From Eledone cirrhosa (taxonomy: Eukaryota), in assembly GCA_964016885.1 (NCBI GenBank), contig OZ024760.1:8866001-8930000 (forward strand): a stretch of DNA of 64,000 nt, given 5' to 3'. The translations under genes were made by a program, and so were the position numbers. Shown piece by piece: positions 1 through 59,899 of the stretch (positions are counted from its first letter, which is position 1; each line of letters opens with the position of its first letter). Below the pieces are notes generated by a model. That model worked only from the letters and a program-made list of their open reading frames with translations. It was not told the origin of the DNA and did no database searches.

Positions 1-525
1 TCCCGTGCGACCCACACAATTCTTCCGTCGGTAATTGTATTGCTTGAAACAATTTGGGGAAGAAGCTTTCATCTCTTTGGTAAAAAAAAGGTCATGAACA
101 GCAGATATGACGTCATCATCACTGTGCTACTGGATCCCAGCCAAGGGGGTTTTTTTTTCATGTTGGGGAACAGATGATAGCTAGATGGGACCATTGTTCT
201 GATGAAACAAGACCCCCTTTTCTGGGCGTTTGGTCTTGATAACATTTCGCAACTGTGTCAACAAGTTGGCATAGTACTCTCCACTGATAGTGTGGCCCTT
301 TTGGAGATAATCAATAAACACAATACCTTTTGTATCCCCCCAAAAAACTGAGGTCATCACCATCCCTGCAGATAAAATCATCTTGATGATCTTTGGAGCA
401 GGTGAGGAGGGAAGTTTCCACTGCATGGATTGTCTCTTTGTCTCTGGTTCAAAGTGATGTGCCCAACACACATTCTGGATTAGGAAACGTTCAAAGAAAC
501 CAGGTGGATCTGATTCAAAAATTTC
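1..525 (-). mobile_element. Decayed mariner (Tc1/mariner) transposase fragment
   Basis: ORF 181-471 reads WAHHFEPETKRQSMQWK...SAGMVMTSVFWGDTKGIVFIDYLQKGHTISGEYYANLLTQLR...GVLFHQNN, typical of the mariner catalytic domain. Frameshifted continuation (FPNMKK, DDVISAVHD) runs towards position 1. Confidence 0.9.
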
Positions 526-4382: not shown

Positions 4383-5257
4383 TCCAACACACACCCCCAC
4401 TCCAACACACACATCAGCCAATGAAAATACAGAATTTTCGATTTTATTTCCCCCATTACACAACAAATTTCTCACGTTCACCAAATTTTCGTTTTGAATG
4501 GAAGTAATTTGCAAGGTTTTATAATATTCCCCCTTTTTTTTTACTGTTTTTCAATCTGCGTCCGTTGAAATCTTTTCACAATTCACAAGTACATCTCTCG
4601 TCTGTTTCTATCTGTTCACACTTTTCCATTATCACCTTGCAATCCCACCTCGGTTTGCTCACATTTACAATGTGTAAAAGTTCTTAGTTAACAAAACCAT
4701 CCATTTTGGCTTGTACATTTGGTGTACTGGGACTGGTCATTCACGTTATAAGATGGCCAGGAGTTCGTTAAACAGAAATGGCAACATCAATACTGACAAT
4801 TGATGAACTTCTTTATATTTTTTCTGTGTTATTATTTTTTTTTTATTAATCTATTTTTTGGGGGGTTCAAATGAGCTGGTCATGTGATCTCAGAACACTG
4901 ATAGCCATGATTTATGTAGAAATACATAAATGGCGTCATGCAACAACAAAACGGTTTCACGTGTTGTTGTTAGTTTATCATCCTTCTTCTTCTTCTTCTT
5001 CTTCTTCTTCTTCTTCTTCTTCTTCTTCTTCTTCTTCTTCAGAAGCAACGAGGGATAACTGTCTATGCATTTCGAACTTAAATGTTTCTCATCAGGACAA
5101 TGGTTCGCCCTGCTGGACATAGTTTTTTCGCATGTGTAGGTTGGCTGATCGGTCACATTTGCATACGAAAATGTATAAGTTCACTCAACTTAAAATAGGA
5201 TTAGTATTTAGCTTTGACAAATATACGCATATATATATATATATTGACGACTTTACT

Positions 5258-5569: not shown

Positions 5570-5613
5570 ACCGTACTGATGAAGGCCAGTCAAGAATGAA
5601 ATGCATAGACGGT
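5570..5613 (+). ncRNA. Hammerhead-like motif with disrupted stem II
   Basis: ACCGTA-CTGATGA-aggccagtcaagaat-GAA-ATGCAT-A-GACGGT. Stem I accgt/acggt, palindromic stem III ATGCAT. Confidence 0.6.
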
Positions 5614-5780: not shown

Positions 5781-5805
<25 letters not shown>

Positions 5806-5811
<6 letters not shown>

Positions 5812-6095
5812 AGATCAAAAGATGGTTAAAGGAGTTCCATGTATTTTATTATGCGCATTTCAAAAACAAACATCATCATGCAATAATATTTGTGTTTTCA
5901 TCAGATAAAACAGGAGAACATGATATGAAGGCTAAAAAACACTTGTGGATAGTGCAGTTTTAAATCAACATATCATGGAACTCCTTTAACCATCTTTTGA
6001 TCTTATATTATGCATACTCCAGTCCTACAAACTGTAGAGTGCTTCTTATCCGATATCTGCATTGCTTTATTGTACTACAATAAAACTCACCTCCT

Positions 6096-6098
<3 letters not shown>
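5806..6098. mobile_element. HHR-bearing fold-back element family A, copy 1 (HHR on minus strand 5844-5910)
   Basis: Minus strand reads TTTTAT-CTGATGA-stem II-GAA-ATGCGCAT-A-ATAAAA. An inverted partial arm and tail ending cctaca follow. Flanked by (TA)n on both sides. Confidence 0.85.
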
Positions 6099-11112: not shown

Positions 11113-11145
<33 letters not shown>

Positions 11146-11151
<6 letters not shown>

Positions 11152-11483
11152 AGAACAAAAGATGGTTAAAAGAGTTCCATGTATTTTATTATGCGCATTT
11201 CAAAAACAAATATCATCATGCAATAACATTTGTGTTTTCATCAGATAAAATAGGAAGACATGATATGAAGGTTAAAAAACACTTGTGGATAGTGCAGTTT
11301 TAAATCAACATATGTTGATTTAAAAATATGTTGGTTTGAAATGCGCATAATAAAATACATGGAACTCTTTTAACCATCTTTTGATCTTATATATTATGTA
11401 TACTCCAGTCCTACAAACTGTAGAGTGCTTCTTATCCGATATCTGCATTGCTTTATTGTACTACAATAAAACTCACCTCCTAC
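11146..11483. mobile_element. HHR-bearing fold-back element family A, copy 2 (HHR on minus strand 11184-11250)
   Basis: Same sequence as 5806-6098, with palindromic centre aaatcaacatatgttgattt, an internally deleted second arm, and (TA)n flanks. Confidence 0.87.
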
Positions 11484-11617
11484 ATATATATATATACATG
11501 TATATGCGTATCTGTGTGTGTGTGTTTTTATACTTTTGGCAGGTCATCTAATAAAGTACACACACACACTCACAGAGAGATAGATAGATAGATAGAGAGA
11601 TAGATAGATAGAGAGAT

Positions 11618-16116: not shown

Positions 16117-16443
16117 TGTAGGAGGTGAGTTTTATTGTAGCACAATAAAGCAATGCAAATATCGGATAAGTAGCACTCTACAGTTTGTAGGACTGGAGTA
16201 TAAATAATATAAGATCAAAAGATGGTTAAAAGAGTTCCGAGTATTTTATATATATGTTGATTTAAAACTGATATTTTATATATATGTTGCTTTAAAACTT
16301 CACTATTCACAAGTGTTTTTTAACCTTCATATCATGTATCCCTATTTTATCTGATGAAAACGCAGATATCATCTCATGATGATATTTGTTGTTGAAATGC
16401 GCATAATAAAATACTTGGAAATCTTTTAACCATCTTTTGATCT

Positions 16444-16447
<4 letters not shown>
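16117..16447. mobile_element. HHR-bearing fold-back element family A, copy 3 (HHR on plus strand 16345-16411)
   Basis: TTTTAT-CTGATGA-aaac-gcagatatcatc(tcat)gatgatatttgt-tgtt-GAA-ATGCGCAT-A-ATAAAA. Opposite orientation to copies 1 and 2. Confidence 0.85.
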
Positions 16448-16516
<69 letters not shown>

Positions 16517-16521
<5 letters not shown>

Positions 16522-16840
16522 CAAAAGATGGTTAAAAGAGTTCCATGTATTTTATTATGCGCATTTCAAAAACAAATATCATGCAATAACATTTGTTGAT
16601 TTAAAACTGCACTATCCACAAGTGTCTTTAACCTTCATATCATGTCCTCCTATTTTATCTGATGAAAACACAAATGTTATTGCATGATGATATTTGAATG
16701 CGCATAATAAAATACATGGAACTCATTTAACCATCTTTTGATCTTATATATTATGTATACTCCAGTCCTACAAACTGTAGAGTGCTTCTTATCCGATATC
16801 TGCATTGCTTTATTGTACTACAATAAAACTCACCTCCTAC
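16517..16840. mobile_element. HHR-bearing fold-back element family A, copy 4 (HHR 16653-16712 damaged by deletion)
   Basis: Truncated inverted arm, then a long arm from gttgatttaaaactgc to cctaca. Separated from copy 3 only by (TA)n. Confidence 0.85.
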
Positions 16841-16920
<80 letters not shown>

Positions 16921-17071
16921 GTGTGTGTGATCCGAAAAGATATCCGAGTGGAACTTCAGGTAAAGTCCGTGTGTAAATCCAATTTCAGAATGAAAATCCA
17001 ACGAATTTCATTTCCGTTTCTTCTCTGGCCGTCTCCTCAATCTTTCTGGTTTCTCATTTAATTTCTCATTC

Positions 17072-17110
17072 GTTATTCTGATGAAGGACTAGCGTCCGAA
17101 ATGTTAAGAC
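17072..17110 (+). ncRNA. Minimal hammerhead ribozyme motif
   Basis: TT-CTGATGA-A-GGAC(TAGC)GTCC-GAA-ATGT-T-AA. Intact core, GUU cleavage triplet. Same family as 541-578 but with a different stem II sequence that still pairs. Confidence 0.7.
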
Positions 17111-17255
17111 TCTCTTCCTGCTATTTCAAGCGTTAAACTAATATATTTCTTCTATGTACTGTGCCGTTTGTTTTGTTATTTTTGTTTAACTTTTACACAC
17201 ACACACGCATATATATATATATATATATATAGTGACGAAACATAATCCTTTATTT

Positions 17256-59041: not shown

Positions 59042-59073
<32 letters not shown>

Positions 59074-59077
59074 TATA

Positions 59078-59500
59078 TGTAGGAGGTGAGTTTTATTGTA
59101 GTACAATAAAGCAATGCAGATATCGGATAAGAAGCACTCTACAGTTTGTAGGACTGGAGTATACATAATATATAAGATCAAAAGATGGTTAAAGGAGTTC
59201 CATGTATTTTATTATGCGCATTTCAAAAACAAACATCATCATGCAATAATATTTGTGTTTTCATCAGATAAAACAGGAGAACATGATATGAAGGCTAAAA
59301 AACACTTGTGGATAGTGCAGTTTTAAATCAACATATGTTGATTTAAAACTGCACTATCCACAAGTGTTTTTTAACCTTCATATCATGTCTTCCTATTTTA
59401 TCTGATGAAAACACAAATATTATTGCATGATGATGTTTGTTTTTGAAATGCGCATAATAAAATACATGGAACTCCTTTAACCATCTTTTGATCTTATATA
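59078..59500. mobile_element. HHR-bearing palindromic element family A, most complete copy (HHRs 59207-59273 minus and 59396-59462 plus)
   Basis: Spacerless palindrome centred at 59334/59335 (caacat|atgttg) with about 165-bp arms. Both arms carry TTTTAT-CTGATGA-...-GAA-ATGCGCAT-A-ATAAAA. The left arm has an extra tail of about 90 bp; (TA)n flanks. Confidence 0.9.
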
Positions 59501-59562
59501 TTATACATATATATATATATACATATATATATATAAATGTAATCTGAGTTTTTCGAATATTA

Positions 59563-59748
59563 ATAATTGTTTCTACTTTAGGCACAAGGCCAGCAAATAC
59601 CCAGTGTATTACTGGTACTTTATTTTATCGACCCCGTAAGGATGAAAGGCAAAGTTAACCTCGGCGGGATTTGAACTCAGATCGTAAAGGGACGTAACTC
59701 TATGCTGGAAAGCATGGCGTCCAACCCTCTACCGATACTGCCAATCCA
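59563..59748 (-). mobile_element. tRNA-derived SINE
   Basis: Reverse complement of the 6589 family; flanking repeat aatattaataat. Confidence 0.9.
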
Positions 59749-59899
59749 ATATTAATAATAACATTCGATTCGTTTGCAATTATGCAAACAAGCCTCAATT
59801 TTATAGCCATGTCGGTAGAATGAACCCTTCATTCTTGCTCTTCTGGTGAAGGGCAGAAGGTTGAATTAAATGCAAGATTTGCTGGTGCAGTAACGCGCT

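Follow-up and report, generated by a model that had tools for sequence, protein, structure and literature searches.

A palindromic, hammerhead-bearing repeat of Eledone cirrhosa as paired terminal repeats of a Penelope-like element

The palindromic element at positions 59078-59504 of a 64,000-nucleotide stretch of Eledone cirrhosa contig OZ024760.1 (the whole of that stretch being referred to here as the window) is, on sequence grounds, the terminal repeat (pseudo-LTR, or pLTR, plus tail) of an autonomous Penelope-like element (PLE) in the same genome. It represents a new family within a familiar kind of retrotransposon and not a new class of RNA parasite. The palindrome consists of two terminal repeats set head-to-head, and such pairs are probably made afresh with each insertion, via two reverse-transcription run-offs at a presumably capped 5' end of the element's RNA. 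Direct observations on the genome are the descent from the parent, both outer ends, the clustering of inner ends at unit position -4, the excess of G beside it and the sharing of haplotypes.

The palindrome has no spacer, its 170-bp arms (59165-59334 and 59335-59504, centre CAACAT-ATGTTG) differ by 4 mismatches, and (TA)n targets flank it on the left (59043..59077) and on the right (59505..59536). The left arm carries 87 nt extra, out to 59078, and the longest ATG-started frame in the element has 70 codons. In these respects the original prediction, which described a spacerless palindrome with arms of about 165 bp, one of them with an extra tail of about 90 nt, and without coding capacity, was borne out. 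Unit numbering takes 1 as the first G of GTTGATTT, 254 as the tail end and -4 as the A of the preceding ATAT. The tail-bearing arm (59078..59336, minus strand) then covers unit -4 to 254 of the parent's pLTR plus tail, and the short arm (59333..59504, plus strand) covers -4 to about 170, ending in a TA-like stretch at the pLTR/tail boundary. At the fold-back centre CAACATATGTTG (59329..59340), delimited from the sequence, its 747 exact genomic copies and the distribution of arm ends, the arms share the self-complementary ATAT as their overlap, and we infer that the A of ATATG there is an RNA 5' end. The 82-nt tail (unit 173-254; 59078..59159, minus strand) runs, in full-length copies, into an 81-nt leader and the start of the open reading frame (ORF). 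Adjoining the palindrome, window 59570-59750 resembles an abundant short interspersed repeat, with a possible likeness to cephalopod SINEs, and similar pieces occur in the flanks of locus L014.

Four further copies, also anticipated to lie in (TA)n, were found at 5797, 11137, 16117 and 16501, all in a TA-rich repeat setting. Copy A (5797..6098) combines a short arm of -4..172 (minus) with a tail arm of 128..254 (plus); copy B (11137..11484) a short arm of -4..172 (minus), filler and a tail arm of 105..254 (plus); copy C (16117..16458) a tail arm of 120..254 (minus), filler with a repeated start and an older short arm of -4..172 (plus, 88% identity); and copy D (16501..16841) a short arm of 76..172 (minus) and a tail arm of about 1..254 (plus). 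Only the 59078 copy of the five is a perfect palindrome; in copies A-D one arm breaks off early (at unit 128, 105, 120 and 76, respectively) while the other reaches the shared inner boundary, and filler bases occur. Across the 3.0-Gb genome, the tail end followed by TATA was matched exactly 8,616 times and the fold-back centre 747 times, against 0 for reversed-pattern controls, which excludes a chance origin; both counts are lower bounds, because exact matching was required. Stretches picked by position (340 kb) held unit matches at only 4 loci, too small a number for statistics on junctions. In 30 loci unselected on their flank, the sequence after 254 is a TA-rich repeat in 26, a CA repeat in 2, leader in 1 and unparsed in 1, in agreement with the microsatellite targeting originally proposed.

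The layout of the parent, derived from six longer stretches with the whole element or most of it, comprises a unit, the 81-nt leader, an ORF of 794-799 amino acids, a UTR of ~0.9 kb and a second unit; from one hammerhead to the next the period is 3,627 and 3,633 nt, as measured in the two copies in which both motifs were matched. The 258-nt arm has 96-97% identity to the terminal repeat of this 3.6-kb element, and the tail arm agrees at 248-251 of 258 nt with the 5' units found in four copies linked to the ORF. Among the best 30 unit matches, 7 extend upstream into a common UTR and several reach coding sequence; genome-wide, exact junctions number 1,591 from UTR to unit and 213 from unit to leader, again as lower bounds. 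Furthermore, pLTRs from partial tandems, an inverted 5'-truncated copy and a one-ended tail are present at loci L061, L062 and L065, inverted 5'-truncated copies and one-sided tails being standard for PLEs (PMC8557442). No ORF remnant of the parent family occurs within the 64-kb window. The suspected PLE link was borne out, the autonomous PLE that shares the tail being an ORF-bearing parent, and mobilisation by a PLE reverse transcriptase is accepted as probable; the notion of a separate non-autonomous RNA parasite had to be abandoned, since the unit is the parent's own pLTR plus tail. A second UTR subfamily (L102, L106, L113, L121 and others), which upstream of about -258 differs from the reference copy, is frequent among leader-linked copies, and unrelated Penelope-like ORF fragments adjoin insertions at L061:7440-7700 and L066:6405-7500.

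The 794- and 799-residue ORFs are open and contain RLRW, SDKT/SNKT, YRDD, CNCx5C, LIYE..YFG, CxxC and CxH. Set against the Hydra-clade definition (PMC8557442), in which CxxC and CxH lie on either side of a conserved E and N, they show RLRW(I), with I in place of the K of RWK, SDKT, CNCPAKNKC, CNLC and CLH; the only CxxC is the late one, and the nuclease core has no CCHH cysteine pair. Homologs numbered 12, at 30-37% identity, and searches of Pfam profiles and PDB sequences with the ORF returned no family and no meaningful match. By motif, by homology and by eye against the published alignment, the ORF would encode a reverse transcriptase plus a C-terminal GIY-YIG nuclease of Hydra-clade type. 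Between reverse transcriptase and linker (L063:2349-4745, residues about 585-655) lies an Asn-rich insert of ~70 residues that is missing from 12 of 12 homologs and recalls the Asn-rich inserts of rotifer Penelope elements (PMC3846280).

Likeness to the Hydra clade (PMC8557442) covers the single ORF with RLRW, SDKT, YRDD, a CxCx5C linker, LIYE..YFG, CxxC and CxH, as well as the pLTR hammerhead, the (TA)n target, the partial tandem and inverted 5'-truncated copies and the one-ended tail. The present family differs in its 3.6-kb period (3,627-3,633 nt, against under 3 kb there, a tendency and not a strict rule), its 82-nt tail (30-40 bp there), the ~70 Asn-rich residues inserted ahead of the linker and a junction that is a strong hot spot and carries an extra G. 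Compared by eye, Hydra-1_Obim agrees with the parent at about 17 of the first 44 residues and has a different listed hammerhead (PMC8557442), and the parent appears from this comparison to be a clear but distant relative of Hydra-1_Obim that forms a distinct family.

On each arm, an outward-reading type I hammerhead pattern was matched, as predicted and at the level of motif, with an 8-bp stem I, CUGAUGA, a long stem II and GAAA-UGCGCA-UA^ (cores at 59402 on the plus and 59267 on the minus strand). The conserved core and three helices of a type I hammerhead are present as motif, and the same motif is located in the parent pLTR. In the short arm (59394..59464, plus strand) it has a palindromic stem III and a predicted cut between 59456 and 59457; in the tail-bearing arm (59205..59275, minus strand) it is a motif match with a fold prediction. 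Stem I has a predicted probability of 0.67-0.79 when the short arm is folded by itself, of about 0.05 for the isolated tail arm and of 0.00 in the whole palindrome, whose transcript is predicted to form a hairpin of -272 kcal/mol in which the hammerhead helices have probability 0.00. Because stem III has a 2-nt palindromic loop, a hammerhead dimer is predicted (cofold -33.3 kcal/mol against -10.6 for one copy), and cleavage by hammerhead dimers is cited in PMC6466107. In 28 close hammerhead variants, 98.6% of cells are paired and 9 pairs with a one-sided change still pair; two-sided helix changes number 0 among these 28, with no excess over shuffles. No Rfam hammerhead family appeared among the 150 listed of 399 rows of a scan dominated by microRNA models on microsatellites. 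Elsewhere in the window, three hammerhead-like motifs of different sequence, one found by pattern scan and two by eye, lie at 5040-5101 (minus), about 5570-5612 (plus) and about 17070-17112 (plus), and are likely pLTR remnants of other Penelope-like families.

The inner ends of the arms were sampled in 90 of the first 100 listed tail-end matches, taken in position order on a single contig (C1) and conditioned on an exact tail end plus TATA; 2 matches inside another sampled stretch, 1 sampled previously and the last 7 were dropped. Of these 90 tail arms, 24 end within -9..-2, 43 are shorter with scattered ends (1-227) and 23 continue into the UTR, and the scatter of the 43 would place about 1.5 ends, not 24, in those 8 bases. 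The adjacent inverted arm could be mapped in 49 cases, with its inner end within -9..-2 in 30 and its outer end at 172 in 43, and the outer ends 254 and 172 are found in 70 of 87 head-to-head pairs. The inner junction is therefore non-random, as had been claimed, but it is a hot spot and not the fixed point envisaged. At L117, L175 and L105 an inverted arm ending at -4 faces a tail arm that begins only at 174-209, and the two have zero overlap; since an arm can stop at -4 without an overlapping partner, neither palindromic microhomology nor fold-back copying is needed. Which of the two arms is complete shows an asymmetry of 11 to 2, which could hint at a leading and a trailing enzyme, but much of it is explained by arm lengths. 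Three sequencing runs of unspecified type (one sample, contigs only) display a 5-7-fold depth step in the bin with -4, as well as loose ends in TA at both 172 and 254, and may derive from the source sample, so they do not count as independent support. At the centres of L006, L024, L166 and L181, the terminal motif is repeated two or three times (CAACATAT three times in L006), which could mean that the cDNA realigned at the end of its template and was copied again there, or that repair added templated filler.

The parent base at -5 is C, which makes the hot spot a C-A initiator-like site; initiators are usually pyrimidine-purine, for example C-A. Of 27 arms ending exactly at -4, 17 have G at -5, whereas tail arms truncated at other places have a G before their end in 6 of 36 (Fisher p=2e-4), the comparison set excluding 7 of the 43 truncated arms in which the template base is already G. 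Genome-wide, a purine before -4 is G in 83 and A in 17 of the first 100 of 2,721 matches, and a pyrimidine is C in 89 and T in 11 of the first 100 of 8,599. Sorted by eye, 29 distinct contexts with the G include 13 for which no template is evident; in the others it could come from the partner arm (7), the partner's -5 C (5) or a templated repeat (3), or the context is a read-through variant (1). An untemplated 5' G has been attributed to copying of the cap for L1/SVA (PMC3287187), and the start site of Drosophila Penelope lies inside the pLTR (PMC2377424). Together with that position inside the pLTR, the G excess and the C-A initiator suggest that unit -4 is a capped 5' end of the RNA. In the open literature covered, a scope that ends short of the early Penelope structure studies, no account of PLE insertions with a start-site hot spot or a cap signature came up, nor one of leader-linked copies that lack ends at such a spot.

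The origin of the two arms was addressed through haplotypes in 58 distinct head-to-head pairs with at least 10 informative sites, after removal of duplicate loci and two end-artefact sites. Arms are identical in 36 of the 58 pairs (5.7 by permutation), differ once in 12 and differ at two or more sites in 10, so both arms usually stem from one source and sometimes from two; those of the 59078 copy differ at 4 shared sites and those of L019 at 11. Random independent RNA templates for the two arms were rejected, site pairs being discordant in 47 of 1,246 cases where permutation gives 27%. All 9 of the commonest haplotypes occur in -4-ended arms and also in arms joined to the parent UTR, a sample that is small for rare haplotypes and in which no independent non-autonomous lineage emerged. 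Among 38 parsed junctions, 19 take the simplest three forms (ATAT overlap, one added base, ATG), with a perfect ATAT overlap in 11, and 19 are unique; perfect centres, in a crude parse, are spread over several haplotypes. Shared haplotypes and unique junctions fit palindromes that formed anew per sub-lineage and not from palindromic masters, and the palindromes were likely made afresh at each insertion. The proposal that the element is amplified as a defined unit is contradicted by fillers that are mostly unique, by arms that often do not overlap and by the parent linkage of all common haplotypes. Fold-back copying of a single cDNA was also rejected as a general route, given that arms often lack overlap or the inverted arm is the longer one.

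In the proposed mechanism, the GIY-YIG nuclease would open (TA)n on both strands, and each DNA end would prime cDNA internally, one at 254 and the other at 172, usually on the same RNA or on two RNAs of one source. Cutting of both strands and internal initiation at two sites are suggested by PMC11167929, in which both strands were extended in vitro from two internal start sites. cDNAs reaching -4 (the A of ATATGTTG) would add C opposite the cap, and the two cDNA ends would then be united through annealing at ATAT or through an end-joining that leaves deletions and filler. As the least certain step, long ORF-bearing copies would arise from another kind of template, either a circle formed by ribozyme cutting and ligation or an RNA whose start lies further upstream.

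That last step is motivated by the leader-linked copies, of which 42 units in 40 stretches were taken from the start of the 213-junction list. None ends at -4, 24 continue into the UTR and the other 18 terminate within the unit; 0 stops among the 24 reaching -4 compares with 24:23 in the tail-arm sample (p=3e-6), and 3 leader-linked places outside the sample likewise show no end there. One capped mRNA as the template for all copies is contradicted by these counts, and the long copies would accordingly use another template. The pattern suggests that short copies run off the capped RNA start and that long copies use something else, perhaps a ribozyme-made circle of the kind proposed, from two hammerheads, in the Discussion of PMC4209133. 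A hammerhead circle would explain both the absent -4 stop in long copies and the partial tandems, and an upstream-started or tandem RNA would explain the same two features. Same-strand leader junction pairs ~3.6 kb apart were absent among 100 places listed. A stricter division of labour, in which capped linear RNA yields the short palindromes ending at the cap (thousands of 'strong-stop' fossils) and only a hammerhead-cut ligated circle yields full-length partial-tandem copies, is put forward tentatively and is rather doubtful.

Three other explanations bear on the same observations. It is unlikely, yet worth weighing, that short capped RNAs of ~260 nt, started from promoters in 3' pLTRs or solo arms, serve as a SINE-like template copied in trans by the parent enzyme, the mRNA not being the source. 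Such RNAs would account for the -4 pile-up together with its lack in leader-linked copies, the 3' pLTR of Drosophila Penelope contains requirements for transcription (PMC2377424), and two minor haplotypes, with 5 and 3 arms, are confined in the sample to arms ending at -4. Against this, the 9 commonest haplotypes all occur in both classes; 5 of the best 30 copies end at 254 plus TT, the first leader bases, which points to a leader-linked template; and solo arms lack the downstream sequence, past the start sites, on which the anole protein depended (PMC11167929). Still less probable is a hot spot that reflects no RNA end at all and results from enzyme pausing or preferred repair joining at CATATG, with the G arising from microhomology or templated filler. 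The use of self-complementary ATAT in the perfect overlaps (11 of 38) and the 16 of 29 G contexts with a possible templating source or variant would fit such an origin; however, arms also stop at -4 without a palindromic partner, a sequence-driven stop would be expected in leader-linked copies too, where 0 of 24 reaching -4 stop, and other 6-nt palindromes of the unit show no comparable pile-up in the sorted ends.

Least credible, and largely refuted, is a retrozyme-like palindromic RNA parasite, a defined unit of 255-420 nt amplified through ribozyme processing, as the original prediction had favoured. The 747 identical perfect centres, the conserved 254/172 asymmetry and the intact hammerhead helices are what such a parasite would leave, but head-to-tail repeats number 0 in 90 loci, and where two hammerheads of the same strand lie within 1 kb (7 cases), TA runs and unrelated or inverted DNA come between them. 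Each strand holds one sense hammerhead, predicted to be buried in the -272 kcal/mol hairpin, and ends at the predicted cut, 120, show no excess (11 of 30 inspected among 221, whereas the neighbouring base, 121, gives 17 of 30 among 151). Moreover, perfect centres occur in several haplotypes, and the same inverted 172 end is found on long ORF-bearing insertions. Ribozyme-cut RNA as a linear template was rejected as well, three ends falling at 120 with no excess over 121.

Several known systems share parts of this picture. PLE hammerhead pairs on opposite strands, 100-700 bp apart (PMC4209133), and head-to-head pLTR palindromes at inverted junctions (PMC3846280) resemble the arrangement here, and the passages that describe them give no fixed junction or cap signature, unlike the hot spot and G of the present family. 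The self-priming on an antisense template proposed in PMC3846280 does not fit non-overlapping arm pairs or G on both arms. Closer in mechanism is the anole Poseidon element PAc (PMC11167929), with two internal start sites that define the tail, AT-rich targets, extension of both strands and, counted as a further likeness, uncleaved RNA as template; it belongs to another clade, a multi-copy tandem mRNA is proposed there, and the sections of that account considered here do not discuss the sites at which cDNAs stop. Non-LTR retrozymes (bioRxiv 10.64898/2026.07.22.740005) similarly have a type I hammerhead, derive from PLE pLTRs and are non-coding, but are arranged head-to-tail with at least 2 consecutive hammerhead units, whereas the units here are head-to-head and no tandem was found.

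The regeneration of pseudo-LTRs, the origin of inverted pairs and the role of the hammerhead in PLEs are called open by PMC2377424, PMC8557442 and PMC11167929. Ordinary as a 'new RNA parasite', the element has its value as a mechanistic footprint, in which thousands of young copies yield base-exact predictions of an RNA start at -4, of reverse transcription initiated at 254 and at 172, and of long copies made on a second template. If the division between capped linear RNA and ligated circle were true, these copies would provide in vivo evidence for two RNA templates, and the role of the PLE hammerhead would be the regeneration of the pseudo-LTR.
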